Shown: piece after piece, positions 17,672 through 64,000 of the stretch | Numbering within the stretch: the stretch's first letter is position 1 | How the letters are laid out: each line of letters starts with the position of its first letter | Virus record (IMG/VR): IMGVR_UViG_3300023223_000630 | Location: 1-64,000 of that record | DNA from: a virus | Direction: 5' to 3' (one strand) | Length of the DNA stretch: 64,000 nt | The notes under the pieces: model-generated | What the model saw: only the letters and a program-made list of their open reading frames with translations | What the model was told of the DNA's origin: nothing | Databases searched by the model: none | Translations under genes and position numbers: made by a program

Positions 17672-17820
17672 ATCCCGTATGGTTTGTATATACCGTATGT
17701 GCTTTAGGATATGGATGGGATCAAGAAAAAGTTGATAGACAAGAAATTACCTACCTCAAGAATATAATTTTAAACAGCTTTTTCCTCATCGGTGATTTCA
17801 TGTCGGGAATGTCAAAATAA
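17327..17820 (+). CDS. tail assembly chaperone, -1 frameshifted long form (gpGT-like)
   Basis: Zero frame to 17614, then -1 frame ...FRDLAEEPRRWSGVGSRQNVDPVWFVYTVCALGYGWDQEKVDRQEITYLKNIILNSFFLIGDFMSGMSK; the extension has no start codon of its own near its beginning. Confidence 0.45.
17608..17614 (+). promoter_or_regulatory. -1 ribosomal frameshift slippery heptamer C CCT TTA
   Basis: X XXY YYZ in the zero frame (CTC CCT TTA). The -1 frame opens at 17602 (after TAG 17599-17601) and runs to TAA 17818-17820. Confidence 0.5.
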
Positions 17821-17852
17821 GATTTATATTATTTTAGTGATTCAGTTGTAAT

Positions 17853-24548: not shown

Positions 24549-25061
24549 GTGGATGATTTAATTCTTACAAAAGATAATAAAATTAAAACAGATGGTAGAA
24601 AAAAAGCCGGAAAAGCTAATGCTAAATCATTAAAATATGCTAGAAAACTACCAATAAAATGTAACGATTGTATTTACAGACCTAAAGAAGAAATGGGAAA
24701 TGGTGTATGTACTGTATATAAAAGAGATGGTATATGCTCAATAAGAAAAGACCTGGCAAAACTCACTGACAGTCTTGATGGAGAAAGAAACGTAGACAAA
24801 GTATCTATAATGATGCAGGATACTTTTGAGAGTAATTATGAGATTTTAAAATTTTATGAGGCATTGGAGCATCAAATGGGTATAATAAACCCTGACAGAA
24901 TAAAATTACTAAATTCCCTTACAAACATGGGGAAAATAATCAATGAAATGTCTGCAAAAACAATCAAAACAATTGAAGAAACACACACTCTATCAGATGA
25001 AAAGAAGGAAGAAATATCAAGGATGGTAAGGATTGAAATTCAAGAATCTACCCCCGATTGA
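24549..25061 (+). CDS. terminase small subunit, tentative
   Basis: 170 aa, basic N-terminus, helical, directly upstream of and overlapping the large terminase; GTG start in the track. Confidence 0.35.
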   Translation: MDDLILTKDNKIKTDGRKKAGKANAKSLKYARKLPIKCNDCIYRPKEEMGNGVCTVYKRDGICSIRKDLAKLTDSLDGERNVDKVSIMMQDTFESNYEILKFYEALEHQMGIINPDRIKLLNSLTNMGKIINEMSAKTIKTIEETHTLSDEKKEEISRMVRIEIQESTPD

Positions 25062-26481
25062 AACCATAGGTGATCATCCAGAAGAATATGCTAAAGTAAT
25101 AACAAAATGTATAGCAAGTCCGGTATATTTTGTAGAACAGTTTTTGAATTTCAAGATTCATGAGTATAACAAGGAATTCATAGACTGTATGGACAGGTTT
25201 ATTGTATATGTTACTGGAAGACAGGTTGGAAAATCAACTAGTGCTGCACTAAAGGCAATTCATTTTGGATATTTTGCTCCACTCTTTGCTAAAAATGTGG
25301 AGGATAACGGGGAATGCAATGTAGTTATCATATCCCCTACAGAATATCAGTCAATACTTATCTTTAGAAAAATAAGATCATTCATACACAAATCACCAAC
25401 ATTATCAAAATGTATTGTAAGAGAAACAAAAAGAGATATAGAAATTAGATGGTTTGATGGCGGGGGAACTACAAACTTTATTGTCAGACCAGTAGGTGAT
25501 AACGGTGAGAGTGTACGAGGAATTACAACACACTTTGCAATTATAGATGAATGTGCATATATCCCACAAAAAGTATTTGAAGCATTCCTACCATCAGCAA
25601 TGACTACCAGACCAAAAATACTCTACACATCAACACCTGGAGGAAAGTTTGGTAATTTCTGGGAAGCAACTGAAAACTGGTACAAATCATATGAAAAAGG
25701 AAAACTAAAAGAAGAAAGAGAAAAAACAGATGTTCTACAATGGGTTAAATTCCATGTAACATCATTGGATAATCCCGATACTGCAAGTGATCCAGTATTT
25801 CTTAAAATGCTTGCAACTACTACAAAATCAGCACAGGAGCAAGAAGTGTATGGATTATTCAGGGAAGGCGGTAACAGTCTAATATCCCATAATTTATTAC
25901 AGGATTCACTACTCCCAATTAAAAGACCAAAAACATTTGATTATTATGATATGGGAGTAGATACATCAGGTAAAGGTCAGGATGAGACAGTAATTATAAT
26001 ATTCGGGGTAAAAGATGGCATCGTATATCCAGTACATGTTTACACTGAAAATACAACAGAACAGCACGAATTAGTAAAGAAAATAAAATCACTACATGAT
26101 AAGGAATGCCATTGCAGACGTATATACATAGACGAAACCGGAATGGGATATGAGTTAGTTGCACTATGTTATAAGAAATACTCTTCACTAAATGCATTTG
26201 GAATAAATTTCCTAGCTGAAAAAACAAATATCTATGTAAATCTAGTAAAACTATTTGAGGATAGAAAGATAAATCTTACACTATTAGAGGAACATCATAG
26301 AGACAAACTGGTAAAACAAATTACACATATGTATTGGGATTATGGAAAGTATAAGGATCAGAAACCTAAAGTAAGAACTGATTTTGATGATGATTATAGT
26401 GATGCTTCTGCGTTAGGCTGTTTTGGTCAATTGCGGGGAGCCAGTTTTCAAGTGTTGCCTGATGAATTTGTATGGGGATAA
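25033..26481 (+). CDS. terminase large subunit
   Basis: Walker A YVTGRQVGKST, Walker B FAIIDECAYI; C-terminal RNase H-like nuclease motifs GVDTSGKGQDETVIIIFG and IYIDETGMG. TTG start needed (frame opens at 25030). Confidence 0.85.
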   Translation: MKFKNLPPIETIGDHPEEYAKVITKCIASPVYFVEQFLNFKIHEYNKEFIDCMDRFIVYVTGRQVGKSTSAALKAIHFGYFAPLFAKNVEDNGECNVVIISPTEYQSILIFRKIRSFIHKSPTLSKCIVRETKRDIEIRWFDGGGTTNFIVRPVGDNGESVRGITTHFAIIDECAYIPQKVFEAFLPSAMTTRPKILYTSTPGGKFGNFWEATENWYKSYEKGKLKEEREKTDVLQWVKFHVTSLDNPDTASDPVFLKMLATTTKSAQEQEVYGLFREGGNSLISHNLLQDSLLPIKRPKTFDYYDMGVDTSGKGQDETVIIIFGVKDGIVYPVHVYTENTTEQHELVKKIKSLHDKECHCRRIYIDETGMGYELVALCYKKYSSLNAFGINFLAEKTNIYVNLVKLFEDRKINLTLLEEHHRDKLVKQITHMYWDYGKYKDQKPKVRTDFDDDYSDASALGCFGQLRGASFQVLPDEFVWG

Positions 26482-35781: not shown

Positions 35782-36066
35782 ATGACAAAATTTCTAACAC
35801 ATGTGTCAAAGAAACATGTTACCATTTATAATGAATTATTAGTTACAGTAGCAGGATCAAAACTTGACAAGACAAAAATAATATTTCAGGCCATAAAGGA
35901 ATTTATAGACAGACAAAAAAATGATGAACCACTCATTGTAAACAAAATACACTGGGAAAAATGTTTTGATAACTTGGAAGGCATAAAAGATTTCCAATCA
36001 TTACAACAAGAAATAAATAACCTACAGTTGTATAAGGATAAAGTTGAACGAATCAGATTTAAATAA
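35782..36066 (+). CDS. hypothetical protein (94 aa)
   Basis: Start abuts the previous stop; helical. Confidence 0.45.
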   Translation: MTKFLTHVSKKHVTIYNELLVTVAGSKLDKTKIIFQAIKEFIDRQKNDEPLIVNKIHWEKCFDNLEGIKDFQSLQQEINNLQLYKDKVERIRFK

Positions 36067-38470
36067 ATTACGCAATCGAGGATTAAACGTATTCCCACTT
36101 AAACCAAAGTCAAAGTTTCCTATGGGAACATGGAAAGAGTTTCAAAGTGTACAGTATGATGGTGAGTTCCCGGAAGGATGCAATTATGGTATAGTGTGTG
36201 GTAGTATATCAGGTAACTTGTTTGTATTGGATCTTGATGATATATCATTGTACAAGTACTTTCAGGATTTCCACACATTCACAGTAAAAACCGGGAAAGG
36301 TTATCACCTGTATTTTAGGAGTCATGGATTAAACATACCATCAATGAAAACTGATGATTCCATAGGAAGACACATTGATATAAAATCTGAAGGTGGATAT
36401 GTATTAGCACCTGGTTCAATACATCCAGACACTCTTACACCATATAATATCATAAATGACGTAGAGATTAAAGTTATTGATCCATCACTCATTAAACAAA
36501 GATTGGTAGAAATAGGATTTGATGAGTTTAATGAAAGAAATATTGAGAAAATCAAAGCCGGTAGTACAGAGGGGGATCGTAATAATAACGCATTCAAGTA
36601 TGTTGTATTTGTAGTAAATGAATATGGTCTAAGTGGTGTACCATTAAAGGAAGCATTATACAAGTTAAATGAAAAGAATAATCCACCACTCCCAACATAT
36701 GAATTAGATAATATTTTAGAATCTGCATTAAATTATGTAAATCTACAGGAAAAAATTGACTCTAAAGATCTGGAGATAGAAAGATTTGTTGATGGTGTAA
36801 AGCCACGTTCAATAACAATGCAGGAGATAAACACAAGTTATGAAGGTATACTGGTATCATTTGATGCTATAGTTACTGGAGTGAGTGAAAGATTTACATT
36901 TACAACTGAGGCAGAATTTATTTGCCCCATATGTAGTAGTACGGATACGGGGTATTGTGACGAGTATTACATCATGGGGGAGCCATACTGTAAGGATGAC
37001 AAAAGAAAAATGAATATCATTAATAAAACAAAAATAACTGACTCAATTCAATTACTTAGAATAGAGGAATTTTTAGAAACTGCAAGAGAAAATACACCCG
37101 TAGAGTATGATGCAGAAATTATAGGTGATGATGTCGGGGAGGCATTTATGAGCCAAAAGAAAAGATTCACTGGAAGATTTAGAAGTATATCAGAGAAAGG
37201 TAAACGATATAATAAAATAATATTTCAAATTACATCCATGACTGACTTGGAGCAGACTACCAGTTGTCTACCAAGTGAGGAAGAGTTGATACAATGGAGG
37301 AAAATACCTAACATATTTGAAAAAGTTACAAACAGTATTGCACCTGAAATGCTAATCAACCCACTTATAAAACAGGCCATAATGCTATCAGTTGCAGGAG
37401 GAGTTTCGTTAAATGGTAAACGTGCTGATATACATGTCGCACTACCAGGTGATGCACAATTGGGAAAATCTGAATTATTAAAAGCATTTCATGAATTAAT
37501 CCCCGGAAGTGGATTAACAGTTGGTACACAAAGTACGGGTGTAGGATTAACTGTATCAATGGTAAAATCACATACTGGAGCACTAATACCAAAGGCAGGA
37601 TTTCTCCCAAAGTATACAGGTTATCCCGTGTTCATTGATGAGGGTGATAAAATGAAACCTGAAGATATGGATGCAATGCTACAATGTATGGAACAACAAA
37701 TAGCAGTAGCTACAAAGGCAGGATACCCAAATGTAAAGTTTGCAGCAGTTAATAGTATTGTGTTTGCCGGAAATCCAAAGCACGGGAAATTCATTAAAAA
37801 TATACCAATAATGCAACAGTTAAAAATGTCTGAACCATTCCTTACACGATTTGATATTATATTTTTGGTACTTGATGAGAATAATGAGGAACTAGATGAC
37901 AAAATAAGAAATCATATCAGAGAGTATAGAGAGGGAAATCCAAATTTTATGAAAAAAGATGAGTTACAAAGATATTTCACATATGTAAGGACTTTAAGAC
38001 CAATCATACCAAAATCATTAGAGCCTGGAATAGATGCATTACACAAAAAAATGCGAAAGCTAAACACAGAACAATCCGGAATAAACATTGGAATGAGACA
38101 GTATTATGGATTAAACAGACTAGTAACATCATGTGCTAGCTGTAATTTACGAGAAGAGGCAACACAAGAAGATTTAGATATCGTAAAAAGTATAGTATCA
38201 GCAGCACTAAAATCCCTTGATATGAATCTTGAAAGCGGGCAAGCAAGAGATATAATAACTAGCACAAAAAATACAAAATCCAAATGCTTTGATGTAACGT
38301 ATAATGGTATATGTGATAGTGAGGGAACGATAAATAAAGATGAGTTTATCATAGCATTATCCAAGACTGACTTTTACACTGGTATTACTGCAGAAACAAT
38401 ATGGGATGGATATGTAAAAATGGGTAAAGTCATTCTATTAAATGATACAGGTAGGTATAGACTGGTATAA
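36044..38470 (+). CDS. PrimPol - PriCT - MCM helicase fusion protein
   Basis: The N-terminus carries PrimPol motifs FVLDLDD, GYHLYF and IDIKSEGGYVLAPGSIH, followed by a PriCT-like segment (DRNNNAF..NNPPLPTYELDNILESA) and a Cys4 module (CPICSS..YCDEYY..YCKDD). The C-terminal MCM core has IKQAIMLSVAGG, Walker A GDAQLGKSELLK, Walker B VFIDEGDKM, CMEQQIAVATKAGY, VFAGNP and LTRFDIIFLVLD. TTG start. Confidence 0.8.
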   Translation: MNESDLNKLRNRGLNVFPLKPKSKFPMGTWKEFQSVQYDGEFPEGCNYGIVCGSISGNLFVLDLDDISLYKYFQDFHTFTVKTGKGYHLYFRSHGLNIPSMKTDDSIGRHIDIKSEGGYVLAPGSIHPDTLTPYNIINDVEIKVIDPSLIKQRLVEIGFDEFNERNIEKIKAGSTEGDRNNNAFKYVVFVVNEYGLSGVPLKEALYKLNEKNNPPLPTYELDNILESALNYVNLQEKIDSKDLEIERFVDGVKPRSITMQEINTSYEGILVSFDAIVTGVSERFTFTTEAEFICPICSSTDTGYCDEYYIMGEPYCKDDKRKMNIINKTKITDSIQLLRIEEFLETARENTPVEYDAEIIGDDVGEAFMSQKKRFTGRFRSISEKGKRYNKIIFQITSMTDLEQTTSCLPSEEELIQWRKIPNIFEKVTNSIAPEMLINPLIKQAIMLSVAGGVSLNGKRADIHVALPGDAQLGKSELLKAFHELIPGSGLTVGTQSTGVGLTVSMVKSHTGALIPKAGFLPKYTGYPVFIDEGDKMKPEDMDAMLQCMEQQIAVATKAGYPNVKFAAVNSIVFAGNPKHGKFIKNIPIMQQLKMSEPFLTRFDIIFLVLDENNEELDDKIRNHIREYREGNPNFMKKDELQRYFTYVRTLRPIIPKSLEPGIDALHKKMRKLNTEQSGINIGMRQYYGLNRLVTSCASCNLREEATQEDLDIVKSIVSAALKSLDMNLESGQARDIITSTKNTKSKCFDVTYNGICDSEGTINKDEFIIALSKTDFYTGITAETIWDGYVKMGKVILLNDTGRYRLV

Positions 38471-39008: not shown

Positions 39009-39572
39009 ATGCCTAACCACAACAAACAAAAAGGAACCAGGTACGAAAATGATTTTAAACACGCTTTGCAGATGTTATCCTTTGAGTGTATTAGGGCATA
39101 TTCATCCATTGGTACTGCTGATTTGATATTTAGTCCATCATGGAATTACAAAAAGAATTCCCGGACTTTATTAGTACAATGTAAGAATCAAAGAAATGAT
39201 GATTATCTATCCCCGTTTGAGAGAGCACACATTGATAATTTACAGCAAAGAAATGCCGGGATGGTAATAATAGCATTTAAAAGATCAACAAAATGTTTCA
39301 TTAAAATCTGGGAATCAAATGTAATACAAAGTTTTGAAGAGTTTGTACTAGAACAGTATGGAATATCATGTGAGTATTCAAAGTTATTAAAAAATTATAA
39401 TCAGCACAAGAGGCCAATTCATTTATATCCTTTAGAGAAAGAAATATATACAAAACAAGATGGAAGCCAGGGAGAAAAACCAATTGCTCCCTTTCAAGAT
39501 CTGTATGCAGTAGATGTATGGTATCCACATATCGGGGAACACTTTAATGAGGCATTCAATAACAAAAAGTAA
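39009..39572 (+). CDS. Holliday junction resolvase, archaeal Hjc-like (PD-(D/E)XK)
   Basis: KGTRYENDFKHALQMLSFECIRAYSSIGTADLIFSP...LLVQCKN fits Hjc (kG..fEr.....gf...R...S...D......l.vEcK). I prefer ATG 39009 because the track start 38952 lies inside a TATA-like tract. Confidence 0.6.
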   Translation: MPNHNKQKGTRYENDFKHALQMLSFECIRAYSSIGTADLIFSPSWNYKKNSRTLLVQCKNQRNDDYLSPFERAHIDNLQQRNAGMVIIAFKRSTKCFIKIWESNVIQSFEEFVLEQYGISCEYSKLLKNYNQHKRPIHLYPLEKEIYTKQDGSQGEKPIAPFQDLYAVDVWYPHIGEHFNEAFNNKK

Positions 39573-39784
39573 TGGAATTTTCCGGAACCTCATGGATATC
39601 TCATGTAAAGTACAATGAGGATACTAAAGCAATGTCAGTTACCATGAAAGGGAAAAGTAAAAATGTATATGAAATGTCAGATGTTCCATATGATGTATAC
39701 ATGGAATTTAAAAAATCCTCATCCCGTGGAACCTATTTTAATCGTAACCTAAAGGGTAAATATCAGCATGCGTTCTTCACCTAA
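39572..39784 (+). CDS. KTSC domain protein
   Basis: SWISHVKYNEDTKAMSVTMKGKSKNVYEMSDVPYDVYMEFKKSSSRGTYFNRNLKGKY matches the KTSC pattern (s.i..v.Y......l.v.f..g..Y.Y..VP..v...f..a.S.G.yfn..ik). Confidence 0.65.
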   Translation: MEFSGTSWISHVKYNEDTKAMSVTMKGKSKNVYEMSDVPYDVYMEFKKSSSRGTYFNRNLKGKYQHAFFT

Positions 39785-39856
39785 TGGTATAGTTACCATA
39801 GTATTAGGGTATAGTTACCACAAACACTTTTATTCCTATTATTATACAATATCATT

Positions 39857-39952: not shown

Positions 39953-40227
39953 TTAATCCAGATGACTTTAAGGTAATATGGTGTGGTAAAACACCCGGAA
40001 ATGGAACAAGGTTAAAGGAAGAACTAATGATATGTTATGATTTAAAACAAGCTATTATATCTGCAATAGAGGTATGTCATAAATATGCAGATAATATAGA
40101 TAATGGAGCAATAGAAAGATCTAGGCAGCTTGATAATGCTATTTTACTCCAGACGTTACTAGAACAATCCGGAATTCCTACACTAATTACTGACTTTAAT
40201 AAACCGGAGGATGTATTACCTAAATGA
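39949..40227 (+). CDS. hypothetical protein (92 aa)
   Basis: Track ORF; ends in the first CTAAATGACAG junction. Confidence 0.5.
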   Translation: MINPDDFKVIWCGKTPGNGTRLKEELMICYDLKQAIISAIEVCHKYADNIDNGAIERSRQLDNAILLQTLLEQSGIPTLITDFNKPEDVLPK

Positions 40228-40355
40228 CAGATAATTCAAAGAGTAACTTGACTTACTTAGACTTTGAAAATATTATGGCAGTAGTAGAACAATGTAATAT
40301 TGATGAGGGATTAACCGATAGTATTAGCCAAGCGTTAAAGGTGTTCACTAAATGA
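40224..40355 (+). CDS. mini-ORF s1 (43 aa)
   Basis: MTDNSKSNLTYLDFENIMAVVEQCNIDEGLTDSISQALKVFTK; begins and ends in the CTAAATGACAG junction. Confidence 0.4.
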   Translation: MTDNSKSNLTYLDFENIMAVVEQCNIDEGLTDSISQALKVFTK

Positions 40356-40498
40356 CAGATTTTACAGAATGTTACGAGAGGTTAGAAGAAGAAATTAAGG
40401 CTACTGAAAGTTTGATTTCAGAAGGCGATACAACCAATCTAACAATGACAGGTTATCTTGAAAATCTAAAATGGCTTAGAGGTGATTTGTCTAAATGA
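40352..40498 (+). CDS. mini-ORF s2 (48 aa)
   Basis: MTDFTECYERLEEEIKATESLISEGDTTNLTMTGYLENLKWLRGDLSK; same junctions. Confidence 0.4.
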   Translation: MTDFTECYERLEEEIKATESLISEGDTTNLTMTGYLENLKWLRGDLSK

Positions 40499-51278: not shown

Positions 51279-52294
51279 AACATATTACCAAACACTTTAC
51301 GAATTTAAGCGTTTAGTGTGTAACTTACCCATAAGTATAGACATAAAAGAATTATAATACTATTATCATGGGTCATGAAATTAAGCAGATATACAATACA
51401 TTTTGTGTATCATGCGGATCAACTCATACAACCAAGAACGGGAAGAGGAAAATTAAACATGGTGTAACACAAAGGTACAAGTGTTTAGAGTGTGGTACAA
51501 GATTCACCTGGAGAATAGGTTTTGAGAAAAAGCATTACAAAGGTGAGTTAATCACACTAGCAATACAAATGTATTATGCAGGACAATCATTAAGTAAGGT
51601 AGCACATACATTAAAGATGCTTGGTATCTCACCAACAAAGCAAACCATATGGAACTGGATTAACCAATACTCTTCTCGGATCTCCACTTTTTTAGAAACT
51701 GTTCCACCTGATGTCGGGGAGTCATGGAGGAGTGATGAAATGTATACCCATGTTAAAGGTAAAATTTCATATTTATTCATGATGATGGATGACGATACTA
51801 GATACATTCTAAGTCAAGAGTTAGCCAAAACAAAAGAGTATCATGATGCGTATAATTTGTTTAATAATGGTAGAATATTAGCTGGTAAAAAACCAAGTAT
51901 AGTAACTACTGACGGACTAAAGGCATACAAGAAAGCGTTTAACAGAGTATTTTATTCAAACACATTACCCCGAACTTATCATAATAGTATCATTAAACTC
52001 ACCGGGGATGCAAGTAATAACCTAATGGAAAGATTAAACTGTACCGTAAGAGATAGAGAAAAAACTTTTAGAGGTTTACAAAGTTATGATACTCCTATGT
52101 TTAAGGGGTATGTTATCTATTTTAATCATATTAGACCACATACCGCACTTAATGGAATGACACCAGGAGAAAAAGCTAATATCCATATTGAGGGACAAAA
52201 TAAATGGTTTACCCTCATCCAAAATTCAACACTTCAACAGATTTATAAATATGCTATATAAGTATATATTCCGAATTTTCCATATAAAGTATTT
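51279..52294 (+). mobile_element. IS6-family insertion sequence (limits only bounded by neighbouring genes)
   Basis: Contains the transposase gene. I could not find terminal inverted repeats or a clean target duplication. Confidence 0.4.
51368..52261 (+). CDS. IS6-family (IS240-type) DDE transposase with N-terminal zinc finger
   Basis: CVSCGS...RYKCLECGTRF; WRSDEMYTHVKGK.SYLFMMMD, IVTTDGLKAYKKAF, NNLMERLNCTVRDREKTFRG, YFNHIRPHTALNGMTPGE. Confidence 0.75.
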   Translation: MGHEIKQIYNTFCVSCGSTHTTKNGKRKIKHGVTQRYKCLECGTRFTWRIGFEKKHYKGELITLAIQMYYAGQSLSKVAHTLKMLGISPTKQTIWNWINQYSSRISTFLETVPPDVGESWRSDEMYTHVKGKISYLFMMMDDDTRYILSQELAKTKEYHDAYNLFNNGRILAGKKPSIVTTDGLKAYKKAFNRVFYSNTLPRTYHNSIIKLTGDASNNLMERLNCTVRDREKTFRGLQSYDTPMFKGYVIYFNHIRPHTALNGMTPGEKANIHIEGQNKWFTLIQNSTLQQIYKYAI

Positions 52295-52867
52295 ATGTAT
52301 AGTAAAGAAAAAAAACGGGAATATTATCACCAATATTATATTTTAAATAAAAAGAAAATAGATACACAAAACAAAAAATGGAGATGTAATAATCCGGATA
52401 AAATAAAAGAATCTCAACAAATATGGAGCAAAAATAATAAAGAAAGTTTAAGAATATATCATAAAAAATGGAATGAAGATAATAAAGAAAGAATATCAAA
52501 ACAGAAAAAAGAGTATAAAAAAGAGAATCGAGAACAGATAAAAAAACAAAGAGATCAATATAGACAGAGTAATCGAAAAAAGGTCTTAGAAAGAGGAAGG
52601 GAATTAGATAGACAGATAAAAATAGATGTATTAAATCATTATGATAACTCTATTTGTAAAAGATGCGGAGAAACTAACCTATACAAACTCACATTGGATC
52701 ATATTGAGGGAGATGGTAAAAAACATAGAGAAAGATTAGGAAATGGTAAACATTTTGGAAATAGATTTTATAGATATTTAAAAAGAAATAACTATCCAAA
52801 TGATCCATCCTTACAAGTTCTATGTTTGGCATGTAATGCTAGAAAATATCAATTAGAAGAAAAATAA
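52295..52867 (+). CDS. HNH endonuclease with Lys-rich repeat N-terminus
   Basis: CKRCGETNLYKLTLDHIEGDGKKH...LQVLCLACNARK; KKWxxxNxE-type basic repeats as in 14333 and 17853. Confidence 0.65.
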   Translation: MYSKEKKREYYHQYYILNKKKIDTQNKKWRCNNPDKIKESQQIWSKNNKESLRIYHKKWNEDNKERISKQKKEYKKENREQIKKQRDQYRQSNRKKVLERGRELDRQIKIDVLNHYDNSICKRCGETNLYKLTLDHIEGDGKKHRERLGNGKHFGNRFYRYLKRNNYPNDPSLQVLCLACNARKYQLEEK

Positions 52868-52930
52868 AGTAATTAAAGTAAATAAGGTAATTAAGGTATA
52901 TAATGTAATTAATGTACATAATGTACGGTA
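52868..52930 (+). repeat. seven tandem 9-bp units
   Basis: AGTAATTAA AGTAAATAA GGTAATTAA GGTATATAA TGTAATTAA TGTACATAA TGTACGGTA, followed by the palindrome ACGGTA-AA-TACCGT (52925-52938). Confidence 0.8.
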
Positions 52931-53163
52931 AATACCGTGTTTATCATCAATGTTTAACTAATTCCGTTAAAATTTATATACTTATTTAATCAAAAAAATA
53001 TGTTAGTTAGTCCAAAAAACATCATACCAAGATGGTGAGGACTAACTGACCCGTTATATGCATTTTTTGCACATATATGGTATAAAGTATATAGTTATCC
53101 ACTATATAGTTATCTACATATATAGTGACACCTACATAGTTTTTAACACATTAATCCAAAATG

Positions 53164-55613: not shown

Positions 55614-55808
55614 TTAGACCGCCTCCATTTTAATACCGTATGATACAATATTCCCGGTTTGTTTTGCCTTAACCAATTGAGCTTTATATTTACCTCTTCT
55701 TGGTTTTGTTCTTAATCTATACCCGCAGCAAGGGCAGTCAAGGCCATTATATAACATGTAGATTTCACAGATTTGACAACGTTTTTGCCCGGCTGCATAT
55801 CTTCCCAT
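55614..55808 (-). CDS. zinc-ribbon protein (64 aa)
   Basis: CQICEIYMLYNGLDCPCCGYRLRTKPRRG. Confidence 0.55.
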   Translation of the reverse strand: MGRYAAGQKRCQICEIYMLYNGLDCPCCGYRLRTKPRRGKYKAQLVKAKQTGNIVSYGIKMEAV

Positions 55809-55858: not shown

Positions 55859-56128
55859 TTATAATGTTTCATCCTCCCATGAATATACTTTGTTTCCATC
55901 AAAATATACTGTCTCTCGTAGTTTGTTTGATAGATCATGATCAAATCCTTCTTTTGTGTAACATGATGCAAACTTTAAAATAAATTGTGCATCATTAAAG
56001 GCTTCCATTCTTCCTTCATGGTATGATTTGTGTTGTTTTGATAAAGAACTATTCATTTTTTGAATTGCTTCTTTTTCTAATTGTTGAAGTCGTATCAATC
56101 CGGGAATTTTTGATTTTTCACTATACAT
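55859..56128 (-). CDS. hypothetical protein (89 aa)
   Basis: Operon member. Confidence 0.45.
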   Translation of the reverse strand: MYSEKSKIPGLIRLQQLEKEAIQKMNSSLSKQHKSYHEGRMEAFNDAQFILKFASCYTKEGFDHDLSNKLRETVYFDGNKVYSWEDETL

Positions 56129-56643
56129 TAGTTTTTCACCCCTTCAAATACTCTTTCTCTTTGGGAATGATTTAAAACATCCTGGTATTTTTTACCGATG
56201 ATTGATATTTCATGAGATATAGCCTCTTTTGCTTCTGATGCCATATTTCCGTATGTATCATTCATATAGTTCCAAACTGCATGAAGCGGATCCGTAATTG
56301 CTATGATATCATCATAGCTTAGTCTTCTGGTGCTCTCCTCGACTCTATCATGGATTTTGATAGGTTGATCACTTGGGAACCTTGCATCATTACTAAATAC
56401 AAAGTTACCCCCGAATTGTAACATCTCATCAGGATCCGGTGAAGGACTAGCCATCCAGTGATTTATATTTCTTGGATTTCTGTGAATGTATAATTTTTCG
56501 GATTCATCTATATTCCAAGACTTATCAACATTACCATCTTTAACAGATTCCCCATAAATAACGACTCTATCATGATTCACAGACATGCCATTATTGGTAC
56601 AATCAGGTGAGTTTTTGTATATATTTGCATATATACCGTTCAT
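56128..56643 (-). CDS. hypothetical protein (171 aa)
   Basis: Operon member; GGNFVFSNDARFP..PIKIHDRVEE looks like a conserved core, but I cannot name the family. Confidence 0.5.
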   Translation of the reverse strand: MNGIYANIYKNSPDCTNNGMSVNHDRVVIYGESVKDGNVDKSWNIDESEKLYIHRNPRNINHWMASPSPDPDEMLQFGGNFVFSNDARFPSDQPIKIHDRVEESTRRLSYDDIIAITDPLHAVWNYMNDTYGNMASEAKEAISHEISIIGKKYQDVLNHSQRERVFEGVKN

Positions 56644-57297
56644 TTAATAACTCATCTCCGGATCTTCCAAGAATTTTAACCCATTCTCAGTTATGATATA
56701 ACCATCTGTACCAAGTCGTTTTAATCCTTGTGTGGTTATAATACAGTTTGTTTCCATTTTAACAAATGGTGTTGTATTTTGTCCGTAGTCATGAGCTAAT
56801 CTATCAAGCCATCCCTCATTACTTGGAAAAAGATGTGCTATTCTTGCCCTTGTACTAAATGGATTGTCTCTGATATACTTTAAAATTTCTTCTTCTGTTG
56901 TAAATATATCATTGTTTTCATGCATCTTGTTTACAAAAGAGTCATTTTTACCCTCTGCATATGCAATATTTTGTTCCCATGTCCATTCAGATCTTAGATC
57001 TTTTGTGAGTTTTGGGAATTCACAATTTAAACCATATTCTGACTTTACAAATTCAAGAGCCTCTTTAAAAGTATCATATGATTCCTTCAAATAATGGCCT
57101 GTGCTGTTTGTGTGGTTGTATTCTTGGATTATAATGCTTTTCTCAAATTGTGCATGTCCTCCAAATTCTAACACGAGTTTTTCACCATTATGTAAAAATT
57201 CAGGTGTATAAACTCTCAAGCCTCTTGAGGCTCGGTTTTCAAGTTCAACGGTTTTAACCGTTAATTGTTCTGATTCCATAGTATTATAATGGTACAA
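56644..57297 (-). CDS. hypothetical protein (217 aa)
   Basis: The C-terminal part may be a winged helix. Confidence 0.5.
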   Translation of the reverse strand: MYHYNTMESEQLTVKTVELENRASRGLRVYTPEFLHNGEKLVLEFGGHAQFEKSIIIQEYNHTNSTGHYLKESYDTFKEALEFVKSEYGLNCEFPKLTKDLRSEWTWEQNIAYAEGKNDSFVNKMHENNDIFTTEEEILKYIRDNPFSTRARIAHLFPSNEGWLDRLAHDYGQNTTPFVKMETNCIITTQGLKRLGTDGYIITENGLKFLEDPEMSY

Positions 57298-57314
57298 GAG
57301 TAATATATATCTAT

Positions 57315-57572
57315 CTATCCTTTGAATGTATCATCCGGAATGTTACCATAATAGTATTTTTCTAGTGCAGCAATTGAATTAAAAGAATTATAATTACTAT
57401 TATAGTATCTAGGCATGTAATGATCATAATTAATTCCATTATGAATTATATTTCCTTTATAAGATTCCGGGTATTTTTTTCTTATATAATGTTCGTATGA
57501 TATAACATGATTAACAAATGGCATATAATGTATGATCCCCAGGTATACCAGTATTTTATTTATTATATTCAT
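57315..57572 (-). CDS. hypothetical protein (85 aa)
   Basis: Tyr/Asn-rich with a hydrophobic N-terminus. Confidence 0.4.
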   Translation of the reverse strand: MNIINKILVYLGIIHYMPFVNHVISYEHYIRKKYPESYKGNIIHNGINYDHYMPRYYNSNYNSFNSIAALEKYYYGNIPDDTFKG

Positions 57573-57605
57573 TATAGTATAATGATATAATATTGTATTT
57601 ATACG

Positions 57606-57752
57606 TTATAAATCGGGGAATTCTTTTAAAAATTGTTTCTTAATATCATCACAATTAGCTTCAAGTAATTTATTCATTTCATAAAAGAAAGCTTGTAGTT
57701 CAGCATCAATTATTAGTACCGGGCAATTACCGAGGTTAATAGTATCTATCAT
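57606..57752 (-). CDS. hypothetical mini-protein (48 aa)
   Basis: MIDTINLGNCPVLIIDAELQAFFYEMNKLLEANCDDIKKQFLKEFPDL. Confidence 0.3.
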   Translation of the reverse strand: MIDTINLGNCPVLIIDAELQAFFYEMNKLLEANCDDIKKQFLKEFPDL

Positions 57753-57796
57753 AATACCATCATAGTAAAAAAAGAATATTAAAGGATCACTACACT

Positions 57797-57895
57797 TTAT
57801 TTGATTAAGTTGTTTAATCTAGTGATGGCCTCATCTGGGTGATCTTCTAAAATACCCATAATATCTTGTATTTCTGCTATAATATCATTATTCAT
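57797..57895 (-). CDS. hypothetical mini-protein (32 aa)
   Basis: MNNDIIAEIQDIMGILEDHPDEAITRLNNLIK; ATGA overlap with the upstream stop. Confidence 0.3.
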   Translation of the reverse strand: MNNDIIAEIQDIMGILEDHPDEAITRLNNLIK

Positions 57896-58251
57896 GATAA
57901 ATCATTCCAGGTTGGAAAAACGTGTATTACTGTATCATTTCCTAGTATAATAGGATCCGGGTCAAGTGAATCACATAATGCATCTAATGAGGAACGAATT
58001 TTTTTCCAGGATGCATAAATTTCTTGATGTTCTAGCTCTGATATTTTACTATACATATGATCAGTATGTGATTGTTCTTGTAACATTACAAGAGTTTTAA
58101 AACTCTCTTTGGATGGTACTAATAACAATTGATTGACTTTAATAGCTTCTGCCATTAATTGTATAGCCAATGCACCTTTCACATCTGGTTCTAAATATCT
58201 AGTCATGAGTTCTTTTTGGTATGTTTGATATTCTTTTTTTGTGTGATTCAT
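57892..58251 (-). CDS. hypothetical protein (119 aa)
   Basis: Operon member. Confidence 0.5.
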   Translation of the reverse strand: MNHTKKEYQTYQKELMTRYLEPDVKGALAIQLMAEAIKVNQLLLVPSKESFKTLVMLQEQSHTDHMYSKISELEHQEIYASWKKIRSSLDALCDSLDPDPIILGNDTVIHVFPTWNDLS

Positions 58252-58478
58252 TATGATAAATCCTCCAATGAACCGTTAGAGTCCTCACATGCATGCTTTG
58301 TAATCTCACTAATATTACCAAAGTCCCATTCACTAAACTTTGATACCAGGATCCCCAAGATTTCATTATCTGATGTATCCTTTTGGTATTCTGGTAAAAT
58401 CATCTGCTTTTTACCTTCTATAATGGCGTTTTGTAAAATAACCATATAATCTATTTTTGTTGTTTGTTCTGATTCCAT
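58251..58478 (-). CDS. hypothetical protein (75 aa)
   Basis: Operon member; acidic. Confidence 0.45.
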   Translation of the reverse strand: MESEQTTKIDYMVILQNAIIEGKKQMILPEYQKDTSDNEILGILVSKFSEWDFGNISEITKHACEDSNGSLEDLS

Positions 58479-58517
58479 AATACTATGAGAGTGATAGAGT
58501 ATTATAAATCTATCTAT

Positions 58518-58829
58518 TCAAAGATCTTCAATATCTTTAACTATAATGTTTCTTTCTTCTTGTAGTTCATTTTTTCGTCTTGACATTGGCTTATAACCCT
58601 TTAAAACCTCTTCATAAATAATAATATCCCGGGGATCCTGATTTGATAGTTCAAAAGGCAAATTATTATCTTTAATGAATATGTCATGCATAGCTTTATT
58701 TCTATTAACTTCTAATTCATGAACACGGTTAGTAATTTCATTCATTTTATGAACAGCAATATTAAATCTATGATCAGCATCTATTAGTTGAGCTTCTAAT
58801 GCCTCTCTTTTTTCTTGTACAGTATACAT
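58518..58829 (-). CDS. hypothetical coiled-coil protein (103 aa)
   Basis: First gene downstream of the 58.8-60.1 kb gap. Confidence 0.5.
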   Translation of the reverse strand: MYTVQEKREALEAQLIDADHRFNIAVHKMNEITNRVHELEVNRNKAMHDIFIKDNNLPFELSNQDPRDIIIYEEVLKGYKPMSRRKNELQEERNIIVKDIEDL

Positions 58830-59104
58830 TAATGTACATTAGATTAAAACTATTATAAATGTATCTATTAAATCCCGGGAAAGATATATAATAACATTAA
58901 ACAACATTGTTATTAAGAATAGACTCAAATGTTAATAACATTTATGAATAAAACCAATATTTCTTTGCATATATTCTCTATATAGAGAGAGAAATGACAA
59001 AAAGAATATAGGCGTAATTATCATGGTACAATCTCACATATCATTTTATATCCGTTCATTATAATCGGGGAATTACCATTTATGAGTGTTTACTAACATT
59101 GTTA

Positions 59105-59242
59105 CTATAATACATGACATATGTTATAACCTATCATAAGACCCAATAAAATACTCAATGATGTTACGTATAAGAATGATCCTATCTTACCTGGTTGAGT
59201 AATAGATTCTTTTGTTCCTGTATTGGCTTTTTCATCACTCAT
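59105..59242 (-). CDS. small membrane mini-protein (45 aa)
   Basis: MSDEKANTGTKESITQPGKIGSFLYVTSLSILLGLMIGYNICHVL. Confidence 0.3.
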   Translation of the reverse strand: MSDEKANTGTKESITQPGKIGSFLYVTSLSILLGLMIGYNICHVL

Positions 59243-59279
59243 AATTCTCTCTAATATCTCCTATAATATCGGACACCCA

Positions 59280-59980
59280 CTCCCCTATATATACCTTTGT
59301 ATAGCTATACAGATCTGTATAGCTAGGCGTAATAATAGATTACCCTATATAAACCTTTACTATACGAACTATATAGATGTCCTTTGGACTATATAGGCGA
59401 AGCCTAGAACTATATAGTTAGACACTATATGATGGGTAATATAAACCTTTGTGCCTAGAATGGAAATGCTGGGGTAATATATACGTTACTATCATTTCCG
59501 GGAATTAGGCCTAAAACAATGTACCATAGGGGTAAAGCTGCTTTATGTAGCGGTAATCTATCCATGCCTAACTCTATGACTAGATACCTTACATAAGGGG
59601 TAAAGTGTACCATGCCTAACACATTGTAACACCCCGATGCTGCATGCCTAGAATAGATCGCTAATTCTCTCTTTCGGAGTATAATTGTGCCTAGAATTAT
59701 ACTTTACAGCTAGTCAAAATGTCTTTATTTCTGATCGCTATAGTACACTATGGTATACTAGTCAAGGCCATGCATGGTATATGATTAATACATTGTACAT
59801 AATAGCCACTCGGATATTAATAGATACATACTTATTACCCCGATTCTTTTATATACTGTTATAGCATAGATATATATTACCCATTATATTCGTGCCTAGA
59901 AAGTGTATCCACACAGATAGGTTTATATGTGAGGGGTAATCAGATGTACACATGAAAAATATTATTTTACGCCTAAAATA
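59280..59980. repeat. array of short GC-rich motifs (candidate origin/iteron or operator array)
   Basis: GGGGTAA/TTACCCC appears at ~59340, 59434, 59471, 59529, 59597, 59835, 59877 and 59933. (T)GCCTA(G/A)A or its complement appears at ~59324, 59394, 59402, 59453, 59506 (palindrome TTAGGCCTAA), 59566, 59614, 59646, 59689, 59894 and 59971. TATA(A/T)ACCTTT occurs 3 times at 59287-59450. Confidence 0.7.
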
Positions 59981-60094
59981 GATTTATAATAGACTCGTAT
60001 ACATAAAATATTTTCTACGAAAATTACAAAAAAATCTCCAAAAGGGGATTGAAAAAAAGATATATAAAGGGCTCATACATTACACTATAATACA

Positions 60095-60505: not shown

Positions 60506-60807
60506 TACTAGCAATGATACAATAATAAAGTCAGTAGATGAAAAGGTTCATAAATATATAAAAAAGAACAAACGTTCATGTTTCATTAATAATTATACAG
60601 AACTCTAAATCATAGTTACAAGTGTCTAAACTATGCTTTTACCTTCCATCCACTGTAACAATGTGTTCTGCATAGACTCCTGTTGTAGTTAGTTAAACTT
60701 GAAATAAAATTACAGCATCCCGATAATCTACAGTGGAATAACCAGAAATTTCTTTTATGACCTTTTAATATTACTAGTCTTGGTGATCTGTTACTTCCCA
60801 TGTTACA

Positions 60808-60963
60808 TCATTGTTTGCACAACTGACTAATCTTCTTAATCTCATCTAACACATTATTTAAATTCTCCAAAGCTCTATCCTTCTCTCCCCGGATGATATA
60901 ATTTATTGCCTGGTTAAAGTCAATATTTGTTCTAATTGTATGTATTAGTAATTCTTCATTCAT
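60808..60963 (-). CDS. hypothetical mini-protein (51 aa)
   Basis: MNEELLIHTIRTNIDFNQAINYIIRGEKDRALENLNNVLDEIKKISQLCKQ. Confidence 0.35.
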   Translation of the reverse strand: MNEELLIHTIRTNIDFNQAINYIIRGEKDRALENLNNVLDEIKKISQLCKQ

Positions 60964-61008
60964 TGTATTATAATAACATCTTCCGGAATATTAATGTATG
61001 TAAAACTA

Positions 61009-61206
61009 TTAGAAATTAAAAAGGTGAATGGTTTTTTTGTATTGTTCTAAATGATGATTGCCTAAATGTATTCTCATCCATCTAAAATCTTCATTTGTTA
61101 CAATCTTTGAACAAAAATTACATTTTAGATCTTCAGAATGTTCAATGGGTGTAAAACATTCTTGTACATACTTGTCATCCCAATCAGTCATAATATCATT
61201 CCCCAC
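61009..61206 (-). CDS. C2H2-type zinc-finger mini-protein (65 aa)
   Basis: CNFCSKIVTNEDFRWMRIHLGNHH. Confidence 0.45.
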   Translation of the reverse strand: MGNDIMTDWDDKYVQECFTPIEHSEDLKCNFCSKIVTNEDFRWMRIHLGNHHLEQYKKTIHLFNF

Positions 61207-61784
61207 TGGTCAGCCATGGCATCAGCTATTCCCTGAAATGTCCTGCTTCTAATCTTCCACCTGTCCTTTCCGGGCGGTGTGTAATGTATTCTCTGTGAGA
61301 TGTTCTTTGGAAGTTTTTTCATTTCCTCTTTAACATCATTTGTAGGTATCAGTTTTGGAAGGTTCTTTAGCCATAAACATGTTGCTTTTCTTTCCAAGTG
61401 TCCGAACTGATATGGTTGGATTATTTGTGTGTATTTCCCGATATTATTTCGGGCATACTTGTGAGGGATTGGATTCTCAAGACATATTTTTTCTATTGGT
61501 GCTTTCTTTAGCTTGTTGAAAAACTCGCACGCATGATCCAGTTTTCCCCATCTTGACTCATCCTTGTGCAGCCAGCATACTCCAGAATTTGCCATGTATG
61601 TACAGTCGGGATGTCCTATCATCATGTCCCAATTTTCATTCAAATGATTTAACACATCATCTTTAATATGCCAGTTTGGATTCCCCTCAGTATCTAAAAT
61701 ATCACATGAATATGCATCATGACCTATTTTTCTAAATGCCTTTGTTACAACCTGTGAAAACTCACAGGCTACTAAAACCTTCAT
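61188..61784 (-). CDS. DNA methyltransferase-like protein (phage ACEFS.../PxCT family), tentative
   Basis: MKVLVACEFSQVVTKAFRKIGHDAYSCDI and MIGHPDCTYMANSG resemble motif I and the PC motif of a phage cytosine-methylase-like family; from memory, not checked. Confidence 0.45.
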   Translation of the reverse strand: MKVLVACEFSQVVTKAFRKIGHDAYSCDILDTEGNPNWHIKDDVLNHLNENWDMMIGHPDCTYMANSGVCWLHKDESRWGKLDHACEFFNKLKKAPIEKICLENPIPHKYARNNIGKYTQIIQPYQFGHLERKATCLWLKNLPKLIPTNDVKEEMKKLPKNISQRIHYTPPGKDRWKIRSRTFQGIADAMADQWGMIL

Positions 61785-61952
61785 ATCATGTATAATCTGT
61801 ATTACCCATATAAGTGTAGTAAGATTCTTTAATTGAAAAAAAGATAGCCCCGATTTGGGGGCATATTGTTAAACAGTTTAGATTGAACTAAGACTGGTTA
61901 ACGCCTAAAGTAGCTCTGACTTGTTTGTACAATATTGAAACGATATAAAAAG

Positions 61953-62177
61953 TTATACTACTCTTGTTTCCTGGAATTTAATTGGTGCTGTGACAATACG
62001 CCACATGTGTTGATCATACCTTCTATGATTAATAGTAATAGATTCTCTTATTACTTTATATTTTATATCAGTTACCATTGTATCTTTAGAGAGTGCAGCA
62101 ATTGATTTGAGTAACTCTTCATTTGGGGATTTGTCTTTATCATTTAATTCCTTCCCGGTGATCATAATATTTACCAT
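61953..62177 (-). CDS. hypothetical protein (74 aa)
   Basis: Track ORF with a promoter-like AT tract upstream. Confidence 0.4.
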   Translation of the reverse strand: MVNIMITGKELNDKDKSPNEELLKSIAALSKDTMVTDIKYKVIRESITINHRRYDQHMWRIVTAPIKFQETRVV

Positions 62178-62320
62178 TATACTACTATAGTAGTATCATA
62201 GTATGCAGTATAAAAAGGTTAAGACCAACAGTCGTCACTAAGATCTTATTGTTGGCTTAAAGCCAAACAGTGAGTCATTATTGGCATATGAAATTAATAC
62301 TATTTTATGTTATATATACT

Positions 62321-62809
62321 TTAATCTTTTACAGGTGTACCGCCTAGACCAGTTTCTTCAGGTAGTACATCTTTTTGTTTACGATATAAAAATGATATTA
62401 AATTACTAATTTTTGTTTTGGTTAGTTTTACTGCTTTGAGTGTTGCCTTACTTTTGTGACTCGTTTCTTTTAGTTTCTTTATGAAATATTCATCATCTAC
62501 TGCTGAAGATATACCCATTTCATTTTTAACAGATTCCAATTGTTCGTCACTAAATGATACATTGGATTCTCCAGGAGATAATTTTTCTAATTTTTCTTCT
62601 AGGATAGATATTTGTAATGTTAAGGATTGTACAGTATCCGGCTTTTTTGCTTGTTCCTTTACATTTGGTGCATTAACCATGTTATTATGTAATATATTCA
62701 TATTACCGTTATAGATGTTTAAAAGATCCCTGACTGTAAAATATTTCTCTTTATATGATGATATGACACTTCTTAGATTTTTCATTAATATGTGACCTTT
62801 CATATCCAT
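62321..62809 (-). CDS. hypothetical protein (162 aa)
   Basis: Track ORF. Confidence 0.5.
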   Translation of the reverse strand: MDMKGHILMKNLRSVISSYKEKYFTVRDLLNIYNGNMNILHNNMVNAPNVKEQAKKPDTVQSLTLQISILEEKLEKLSPGESNVSFSDEQLESVKNEMGISSAVDDEYFIKKLKETSHKSKATLKAVKLTKTKISNLISFLYRKQKDVLPEETGLGGTPVKD

Positions 62810-63012
62810 TATACAGCACTATTCATATGTGATGTATTTAAATCTTTTAATCTGGATAATACACAACCTCCCCCGAAACCACATGAATTACAATGGATTA
62901 AAATTTCTTGTATTGTAAGATTCTCCATATCATTTGAAGGTTTTTCCGGCCACGATTGTATCATAATATTATCACTTTCACATTTCAAACATACACGTTT
63001 CCCGGGATTCAT
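62809..63012 (-). CDS. zinc-ribbon mini-protein (67 aa)
   Basis: CLKC....CNSC. Confidence 0.45.
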   Translation of the reverse strand: MNPGKRVCLKCESDNIMIQSWPEKPSNDMENLTIQEILIHCNSCGFGGGCVLSRLKDLNTSHMNSAV

Positions 63013-63650: not shown

Positions 63651-63689
63651 GGTACAAATACAACATTTGGACTAATATTGTTTAATTCC

Positions 63690-63700
63690 TGATCGCAAAA
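63690..63700. repeat. direct repeat TGATCGCAAAA (left copy)
   Basis: Identical 11-mer at 63967-63977. Confidence 0.6.
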
Positions 63701-63734
63701 CGTCTTTTTTTGAAAGAAATAATAAAACAAAAAA

Positions 63735-63761
63735 TATTTTTGTATATATCACTATATACGT
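63735..63761. repeat. 27-bp perfect inverted repeat, left arm
   Basis: TATTTTTGTATATATCACTATATACGT; exact reverse complement at 63896-63922; coordinates cross-checked against the track ORF 63710-63958. Confidence 0.85.
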
Positions 63762-63895
63762 TTAAGAAAAGAGTATATACAAAGTATGTCTTTCCTTATA
63801 TCTCTTGTTATATATTGTTATTGTGTTTTAATATAATCTCCCATTTACATTCCCATTGTTTGATATTTAAATCTTTATATATACTAATTTACTAT

Positions 63896-63922
63896 ACGTA
63901 TATAGTGATATATACAAAAATA
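63896..63922. repeat. 27-bp perfect inverted repeat, right arm
   Basis: ACGTATATAGTGATATATACAAAAATA. Confidence 0.85.
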
Positions 63923-63966
63923 AAAACACACTTTGATCCATGTAAAATATTATTATAATTCTTTTG

Positions 63967-63977
63967 TGATCGCAAAA
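63967..63977. repeat. direct repeat TGATCGCAAAA (right copy)
   Basis: Identical to 63690-63700. Confidence 0.6.
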
Positions 63978-64000
63978 TCACTTGATAAAGTAAAAAATAC

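Follow-up and report, generated by a model that had tools for sequence, protein, structure and literature searches.

A two-motif array of putative protein-binding sites in a gene-free region of a predicted thaumarchaeal virus

Iteron-type origins are built from direct repeats of 17–22 bp that follow each other at a regular spacing of about two helical turns, with the rep gene and an AT-rich unwinding element (DUE) close by. At P4 ori/crr, SV40 and oriC the initiator boxes are shorter (5–9 bp), irregularly spaced and present in both orientations, and the initiator is a primase-helicase or a helicase. Two short motif classes repeated in a non-coding control region are found in P1 parS (Box A and Box B) and in P1 immI c4. 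The archaeal repressors MDR1, LrpA, Phr and TrmB bind at or just downstream of TATA/BRE and in this way block RNA polymerase. For tailed viruses of marine ammonia-oxidising Thaumarchaeota metagenomes are, to our knowledge, the only source so far, and we know of nothing that has been reported on the control of expression or on the start sites of PrimPol-MCM replication in these viruses. The general architecture of archaeal origins has been described (PMC4010727).

The DNA analysed here, referred to as the window, comprises 64,000 nt out of a contig of 64,926 nt. It is AT-rich (GC about 32%) and encodes, besides the large terminase and a fused PrimPol-MCM replicase, a tail tube protein, an SU10-like capsid protein, a Rad51/RadA recombinase, a DDE (rve/IS240-type) integrase-like protein and two tRNAs. 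Relatives of the PrimPol-MCM with 38–50% identity were found on contigs of 48–68 kb, one of which is labelled Nitrosopumilus sp., and because of these relatives we assign the source, on sequence grounds, to a tailed virus or provirus of the Nitrosopumilus type, whose hosts would be marine ammonia-oxidising Thaumarchaeota. An MCM with 94% identity is present in the Logan unitigs of SRR32546278. Among GenBank phage records no annotated relative was detected, and the only matches, with at most 31% identity, were to the MCM of distantly related archaeal viruses.

We focused on the region from 59243 to 60094 (852 bp), in which the motif cluster proper extends from 59283 to 59976. Two motifs were defined, the A site (G)GGGTAAT and the B site (T)GCCTA(G/A)A, and counted on both strands. 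The features of the window, the region and its flanks are the following:

24549–25061: gene directly upstream of TerL
25033–26481: large terminase TerL
36044–38470: fused PrimPol-MCM replicase
58518–58829, minus strand: first clear minus-strand gene (103 aa), heading the ORFan operon that runs from 58829 to 55614
59009–59017, plus strand: outlying copy of TAGGCGTAA, left of the 45-aa ORF
59064: A-like ATCGGGGAAT, outside the region and near the outlying TAGGCGTAA
59105–59242, minus strand: possible tail-anchored membrane peptide gene (45 aa), which sets the left boundary of the region in the original prediction
59243–60094, no strand: motif-dense gene-free region without an ORF of at least 60 aa, marked by the k-mer cluster scan
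59283–59430, no strand: left sub-region with TATA, BRE-like boxes and palindromes; the third TATAWACCTTT lies outside it, at 59440
59298–59311: palindrome TGTATAGCTATACA, in the left sub-region
59340–59345 (A site, GGGTAAT) and 59323–59328 (B site), minus strand: unit U1 with a gap of 11; its A site directly follows TTTATATA
59369, 59389 and 59410: palindromes CTATATAG, spaced by 20 and 21 bp
59402–59409, plus strand: leftmost B site GCCTAGAA
59434–59458, plus strand: unit U2, GGGTAAT-N13-GCCTAG(AA)
59472–59514, plus strand: unit U3, (G)GGGTAAT-N31-GCCTAA, ending in the palindrome TTAGGCCTAA (59505–59514)
59530–59571, plus strand: unit U4, (G)GGGTAAAG-N30-GCCTAA, with an internal A-like GCGGTAA at 59550
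59598–59619, plus strand: unit U5, (G)GGGTAAAG-N10-GCCTAA
59646–59696, plus strand: two unpaired B sites (T)GCCTAGAA, at 59646 and 59689
59835–59882, minus strand: two inverted A sites, TTACCCC at 59835 and TTACCC at 59877, with 35 AT-rich nt between them
59894–59901, plus strand: B site GCCTAGAA, 11 nt past the inverted A site at 59877 and about 25 nt past a TATA run
59934–59976, plus strand: unit U6, (G)GGGTAAT-N31-GCCTAA, preceded by TTTATATG and overlapping TTACGCCTA at 59967
60029–60055, no strand: hairpin AATCTCC-AAAA-GGGGATT, between the array and the GNAT promoter
60053–60094, plus strand: GNAT promoter (AAAAAAGATATATAAAGGG), about 35 nt upstream of the ATG at 60095, with a PWM score of 7.7 bits
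61801–61807, minus strand: isolated A site GGGTAAT, directly past the TATA box of the methyltransferase promoter
61903: isolated B site GCCTAAA

The region had originally been described as densely packed with two GC-rich motifs, and the enrichment holds against shuffles, the rest of the window and the other non-coding DNA. All five copies of GCCTAGAA in the window are located within 59402–59901 and on the plus strand (0.87 expected from whole-window shuffles), and all four copies of TGCCTAGAA fall inside the region. The number of about eight given for GGGGTAA holds for the 6-mer GGGTAA (8 of 32 window copies) but not for the 7-mer itself (5 of 14). In the same way, the dozen copies ascribed to GCCTA(G/A)A correspond to the 5-mer core GCCTA (12 of 41; GCCTA[AG], 11 of 29), while the strict form occurs seven times. 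Comparing the region with the rest of the window gave binomial p values of 2e-13 for GCCTA, 4e-10 for GCCTAGAA and 8e-9 for GGGTAA; against other non-coding DNA only, the values are 9e-10, 3e-6 and 2e-6, respectively. The looser class SSSTAA, which fits both motifs as well as GGCGTAA and GCGGTAA, has 17 of its 110 copies here (p = 1.5e-13), and 37 of 740 TATA tetramers are found here too (p = 2e-11). When the whole window was scanned for k-mer clusters without bias, most of the highest-ranked clusters at k = 6, 7 and 8 belonged to motifs of the region.

The remaining elements of the original prediction were all found again. The palindrome TTAGGCCTAA is present at 59505–59514, the three TATA(A/T)ACCTTT boxes were located at 59288, 59348 and 59440, the three copies of TAGGCGTAA or its complement at 59009, 59324 and 59967, and the two outlying copies at 61802 (TTACCC) and 61903 (GCCTAAA). 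The distant TGCCTAGGAA exists, but at 44817 instead of about 44808. The region sits between divergently read genes, as had been noted. It belongs to the longest non-coding stretch of the window, as had been stated, if ORFs of at least 60 aa are counted (58830–60094, 1265 nt), but the plausible 45-aa ORF splits this stretch.

Next, we analyzed how the sites are arranged. The alternation of the two motifs that had been noticed before could be confirmed: a search for GGGTAA-N(9-31)-GCCTAR returned six composite units in the window, all six inside the region, compared to 0.15 expected. The gap between A and B is bimodal, with 10–13 nt in one class and 30–31 nt in the other, and the pairing of the two motifs into composite units GGGTAA-N(10-13 or 30-31)-GCCTAR is a new finding over the original prediction. 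From 59402 to 59646 A and B sites alternate on the plus strand. Nearly all B sites have this orientation and recur every 48–57 nt between 59402 and 59614; A sites point in either direction, and those at 59434 and 59472 pair with the ones at 59835 and 59877 as nested inverted copies, which lie in inverted-repeat arms at 59427–59451/59865–59889 and 59471–59492/59820–59841. Site spacings range from 13 to 57 nt, with a periodicity not above random and without helical phasing. The conserved cores measure 7–9 bp and at most 13 bp (three copies), and TTGTGCCTAGAAT at 59685 is identical to its copy at 59449.

Several other explanations were considered and rejected. Coding sequence does not account for the region, as the longest ORF, which starts with TTG, has 59 aa and none of the small ORFs is convincing. 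A structured RNA gene was dismissed on the fold of the core (z = −1.18 on the plus strand and +0.17 on the minus strand); sliding-window folds were unremarkable, the sole notable values (z = −3.0 to −3.6) being observed over the DNA palindromes at 59283–59430, and the region matched no Rfam family. For a CRISPR mini-array the repeats are too short (at most 13 nt) and irregular, and the only DR-like element is the hairpin at 60029–60055 with a weak match to CRISPR-DR45 (E = 0.14, under the gathering score). TRF detected no tandem arrays in the core. An origin from a MITE or IS element was rejected as well, since no terminal inverted repeats surround the DDE gene and inspection by eye next to the outer inverted repeat revealed no target duplications. 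Taken together, the evidence excludes coding sequence, structured RNA and chance.

We then searched for related arrays. BLASTN of the region against phages and plasmids gave no match. Searching public collections for two successive copies of GCCTAGAA returned only chance matches and 12-nt tandem repeats in unrelated contigs. The A-B-A pattern matched twice in viral contigs, both times in unrelated sequences, 61 times by chance in genome contigs, and 111 times in metagenome contigs, where the sole AT-rich clusters were those of L180, L162 and L186; these three were rejected as relatives because they are minisatellites in ORF-poor, probably eukaryotic contigs. At 12 loci of 11 relatives, found via MCM or methyltransferase, no A-B array is present within 10 kb of the MCM genes (the relatives reached through MCM are L001, L006 and L301–L310), and one composite in L302 lies inside a gene. 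One relative, L304 (IMGVR_UViG_3300025889_000117, 17719–18200), carries a gene-free stretch of 482 nt with a perfect 13-nt × 10.5 tandem array. It resembles our region in being gene-free, repeat-bearing and located upstream of a minus-strand operon of small genes that ends in a homolog of the Zn-ribbon gene 55614–55808, but differs in its perfect 13-nt array, its very AT-rich DNA and its lack of A or B motifs. At the equivalent position of the other relatives we observed nothing consistent. Judged by its sequence, the array appears to be an orphan, repeat-dense viral control or origin region, a kind of region that is known as such.

The neighbouring genes were inspected for candidate binders. 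On the right, the plus-strand gene starting at 60095 encodes a GNAT domain; on the left, the ORFan operon is read away from the region and ends in the Zn-ribbon gene. The possible 45-aa gene is preceded by a TATA box, TATATATA, directly followed by GGGG. A chimeric query made of 15 flanking proteins found no homolog at E ≤ 1e-3 among 5.8e9 proteins, and in this search the 45-aa peptide had none; the GNAT protein, the 103-aa protein and the DDE integrase used as an anchor have no relatives in IMG/VR. Pfam searches of ten neighbours yielded no HTH or RHH match even at E ≤ 1 and no ParB-like domain, replication domains were likewise not detected in these ORFan neighbours, and the AlphaFold model of the 217-aa neighbour at 56644–57297 is unusable (pLDDT 38). 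The methyltransferase, assigned by phrog_757, is widespread without synteny: it stands beside MCM in L001, and L002–L005 are unrelated bacterial phages.

The position of the sites relative to promoter elements was more informative. A TATA-like octamer ends 0–6 nt upstream of six of the eight A sites (background 34%, p = 0.02). The A copy at 61801 lies past the TATA box of the methyltransferase gene and ahead of its ATG, the same layout as in the region; for A this copy, and for B the one at 61903, is the only promoter or intergenic copy outside. Modules of TATA followed by GGG are non-coding in 12 of 14 cases window-wide, and 5 of those 12 are inside the region. Furthermore, ACTATATA(G), which is related to the CTATATAG palindromes as their core, is non-coding in 12 of 13 copies, distributed across five intergenic regions. 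We regard the placement of the A sites and of the TATA-GGG modules as weak to moderate evidence that the sites are positioned relative to core promoter elements. Because short cores are exactly conserved amid diverged spacers and obey a pairing rule, the region points to a cis-acting array of putative protein-binding sites, an element that the three originally proposed functions (iteron-type origin, multi-operator region and packaging site) have in common.

The function that we tentatively consider most likely is that of a multi-promoter/operator control hub for the ORFan accessory-gene block. We favour it because the only position-specific evidence points there, namely the adjacency of A sites and TATA boxes, the layout at the methyltransferase gene, the shared ACTATATA and the divergent flanks; also counted in its favour were the motif enrichment, the six composite units with their bimodal gaps, the many TATA tetramers, the TATA-GGG modules, the GC-rich core without a DUE and the absence of an RNA structure signal and of an Rfam match. 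Such a hub would comprise about eight promoter-like modules in both orientations, each consisting of a TATA-like box with an A site (G)GGGTAAT immediately behind it, at the position where archaeal repressors block the recruitment of TFB and RNA polymerase. B sites follow 10–13 or 30–31 bp downstream of the A sites, almost always on the plus strand, and a virus-encoded factor or pair of factors may contact A and B jointly, the two spacings being apart by what we infer to be about two helical turns. In the left part, the CTATATAG palindromes at two-turn spacing would add a further class of sites, whose ACTATATA core recurs in other intergenic regions. Protein binding, the identity of the proteins and the transcriptional output are all part of what we infer from this arrangement. 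Several observations count against the hub: about 25 sites over 700 bp are far above known operator needs, the A-to-TATA association comprises eight sites in all, a promoter PWM derived from 44 genes of the window finds few strong promoters inside the region, the distance from TATA-like boxes to B sites is not significant (5 of 11, p = 0.15), and Pfam revealed no DNA-binding regulator among the neighbours. The multi-operator claim of the original prediction gains some direct support: the A-TATA adjacency, the methyltransferase layout and the recurrence of ACTATATA speak for it, but A and B themselves are nearly confined to one locus and do not occur at many promoters.

The main rival is a replication origin. 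In the iteron form originally proposed it does not stand, as the motifs are 7–9 bp long, belong to two families and are irregularly spaced without phasing, the GC-rich core has no unwinding element and the replicase gene lies 21 kb away. A looser form, a box-cluster origin of the P4, SV40 or oriC type, is somewhat less probable than a control hub: PrimPol-MCM or an origin-binding protein would be recruited as initiator by many short degenerate GSSSTAA/GCCTAR boxes in both orientations, the AT-rich DNA at 59842–59876 or 59940–60030 would melt, and transcription from the embedded promoters would set off initiation, as it does in lambda, T7 and T4. The virus carries its own PrimPol-MCM and Rad51/RadA, the sites are numerous and confined to one locus as in an origin, the stretch is the largest without genes and its motifs dominate the k-mer cluster scan, 17 SSSTAA boxes lie within 852 bp, the A sites form nested inverted pairs (59434/59472 versus 59835/59877), the flanks are AT-rich, and L304 has its perfect 13-nt × 10.5 array, with AT-rich DNA on its flanks, at the same position. 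However, the core at 59430–59700 has a GC content of 39.5% (37–47% across the core) compared to 28.4% in other non-coding DNA; its stability exceeds the genome average, and no other non-coding DNA of the window is as rich in GC. Its AT-rich flanks at 59820–59880 and 59940–60060 reach the 87th–96th percentile of instability (59820–59879, with 23% GC, the 96th), but none is among the 15 least stable segments of the window. Regular iteron spacing and helical phasing are absent, the distance to the replicase gene applies here as well, and at nine loci of eight relatives nothing comparable was found up to 10 kb from MCM. Two other non-coding regions fit a classical origin better: 52862–53126, which contains tandem arrays, and 63735–63922, in which a 50-nt inverted repeat (88% complementary) surrounds some of the least stable DNA of the window. 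The GC-skew analysis suggested along with the original prediction is dominated by gene orientation, which the skew tracks across the window, and gives no information on an origin. An Orc1/Cdc6 origin was rejected: of the elements of an ORB, a dyad TCCA..GGAAA with a G-string, in inverted copies flanking a DUE next to cdc6, only one site (59460–59477, GGAAATGCTGGGGT) presents a likeness, which we take to be to the ORB 3' half, the other A sites are without a dyad, and a Pfam scan of about 50 window proteins detected no Orc1/Cdc6. A cluster of AATGACAG at 40.2–40.5 kb was likewise discarded as an origin, for it consists of TAAATG stop-start overlaps of small genes. It is rather unlikely that GGGGTAAT and TGCCTA(G/A)A, paired at two fixed spacings that differ by about 20 bp, form a loading platform for PrimPol-MCM or for an ORFan origin-binding protein. 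If they did, this would be the first replication origin to be defined in an archaeal virus that encodes an MCM, with bipartite boxes that have no counterpart among ORB or iteron origins; such an origin would have arisen de novo in this lineage, because no relative carries the array.

We find it improbable that the region is a cluster of small non-coding RNAs or an RNA immunity locus, with co-directional promoters driving short transcripts from about the B motif GCCUAGAA and the repeated A and B sites and their inverted copies acting by RNA-RNA pairing, as in P1 c4 and P4 CI. The GC content of the core exceeds that of its surroundings, as is often the case for RNA genes in AT-rich genomes, A sites occur in both orientations, and T-rich stretches at 59720–59732 could terminate transcripts; a TATA-like octamer starts 24–28 nt upstream of 5 of the 11 B sites, with a few more within 22–34 nt, but this spacing is not significant (p = 0.15). 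The folds (z of −1.2 and +0.2 on the plus and minus strand) and the windows outside the DNA palindromes are inconspicuous, Rfam has no match, and the B sites have nearly all one orientation, which therefore leaves little room for intramolecular pairing. Very little speaks for a packaging (pac/cos) site or a partition centromere, to which a small terminase or a ParB-like protein would bind. Two motifs at mixed spacings are a likeness to P1 parS with its Box A and Box B and to pac regions that small terminases bind, but the small terminase subunit gene usually lies just upstream of TerL, and both TerL and the gene in this putative position are 34 kb away, which makes the packaging site originally considered unlikely. 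A scan of all ORFs for Walker motifs recovered only Rad51, MCM and one 314-aa protein, so that no ParA-like ATPase is evident, and no ParB-like or RHH domain was found among the neighbours. Just as improbable is a functionless relic, in which duplicated units of about 50 nt or a small mobile element have decayed and left the motifs as vestiges. The recurrence of B every 48–57 nt (59402–59614) could reflect an old tandem duplication, and the nested inverted repeats and the failure to find homologs anywhere in our searches would fit. Against decay, conservation is limited to the short motifs, where it is exact (5 of 5 for GCCTAGAA), amid diverged spacers, a signature of selection on the motifs; target-site duplications at the outer inverted repeat were not seen by eye, the DDE gene has no terminal inverted repeats, and viral genomes rarely retain 850 bp of junk.

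The array supplies cis elements, namely two motifs, a pairing rule and a place beside TATA boxes. If it is regulatory, it would represent an unusually large operator/promoter hub for an archaeal virus; if it initiates replication, it would define the way in which a viral MCM reaches its target without Orc1/Cdc6.

Among the described systems, the iteron origins (lambda ori, P1 oriR, pSC101 and R6K) share with the region repeated sites in one non-coding locus, but their regular repeats of 17–22 bp and adjacent rep gene are not matched here, nor is a DUE demonstrable in the array. P1 parS and immI c4 are similar in that two distinct short motifs alternate and that their spacing may take more than one value; here, however, neither ParA/ParB nor RNA structure nor a pattern of antisense complementarity was found. 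Like P4, SV40 and oriC, the region has short GC-rich boxes in AT-rich DNA, irregularly spaced and in both orientations, with promoters embedded in the array and a fused primase-helicase, the PrimPol-MCM, encoded by the virus. It differs from them by its two motif families, the lack of a demonstrable unwinding element and the 21 kb that separate it from the replicase gene. Compared to archaeal promoter-proximal operators, about 25 sites in one locus are above any number described, and the two motif classes and the bimodal spacing are further differences. The likeness to these operators lies in the A sites, which are located directly 3' of TATA-like boxes, and in the two-turn spacing of CTATATAG.

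The 8-mer ACTATATA, which forms the core of the CTATATAG palindromes in the motif-dense gene-free stretch at 59243-60094, is not confined to that stretch: 12 of its 13 copies in the window are noncoding and are distributed among five intergenic regions. In this it resembles a promoter or operator motif used throughout the genome. We also observed two other short repeats.

43485, 53088-53119, 55028, 59368-59411, 63751 and 63899: copies of ACTATATA
40223-40494: four copies of (T)AAATGACAG, each a TAAATG overlap between the stop and start codons of successive small genes; the encoded proteins all start with Met-Thr
39786-39830: two tandem copies of GGTATAGTTACCA, directly after gene 39572-39784

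Palindromes of the form GGTATA..TACC, similar to the GGTATAGTTACCA repeat, are found at 19741-19800 in the related viral contig L301.

Two further noncoding loci carry repeats.

52862-53126: tandem arrays of a 9/18-mer AAATAATGT, of a 21-mer and of a 15/16-mer TATATAGTTATCCAC
63735-63784 and 63873-63922: arms of a 50-nt inverted repeat, within 63651-64000
63690 and 63967: direct repeat TGATCGCAAAA

With its three distinct arrays, the locus at 52862-53126 is a candidate for a further iteron or operator locus. The arms of the inverted repeat are 88% complementary, with a perfect inner 21 nt and a separation of 88 nt, and the surrounding DNA is very AT-rich and among the least stable of the window. 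This structure, which lies close to the contig end, appears origin-like or terminus-like and more classical in form than the stretch at 59243-60094.

Upstream of the tandem arrays lie a gene resembling DDE (rve/IS240-type) integrases or transposases (51368-52261) and then a 190-aa gene. As no recognisable terminal inverted repeats were found for the DDE gene, it may belong to the virus itself, as an integrase, and not to an insertion sequence; a counterpart with ~30% identity is present in the distant relative L001 (3341-4105).

Around the stretch at 59243-60094, approximately 15 consecutive small genes (55859-58829 and 60631-63012) have no detectable homolog among 5.8 billion proteins searched, unlike the structural and replication modules of the window; they form a hypervariable ORFan block. 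The lone hairpin AATCTCC-AAAA-GGGGATT at 60029-60055, which matches the CRISPR direct-repeat family RF01354 weakly (E=0.14, under the gathering score), may represent a terminator or an isolated repeat-like element.

Across the whole 64 kb window, GCGC and CGCG are absent (0 copies against ~43 expected for each), TCGA and ACGT reach 0.14x and 0.41x of expectation, respectively, and CCGG is in excess (155 observed versus 43 expected, 3.6x). This bias looks like strong restriction-site avoidance, with the CCGG context protected or selected.

No family-B DNA polymerase was detected in the window's large ORFs. The related contigs L308 (14291-16696) and L309 (14858-17305) encode one immediately past PrimPol-MCM, the fused replicase gene, in the opposite orientation, and at the same position L310 holds an unannotated 726-aa ORF (14551-16731). 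Another relative, L304 (IMGVR_UViG_3300025889_000117), carries three tandem arrays of 100% identical units, all located within about 3 kb in the accessory region that follows MCM.

17932-18068: 13 nt x10.5, noncoding (the only array checked for coding status)
19421-19478: 15 nt x3.9
20909-21034: 15 nt x8.4
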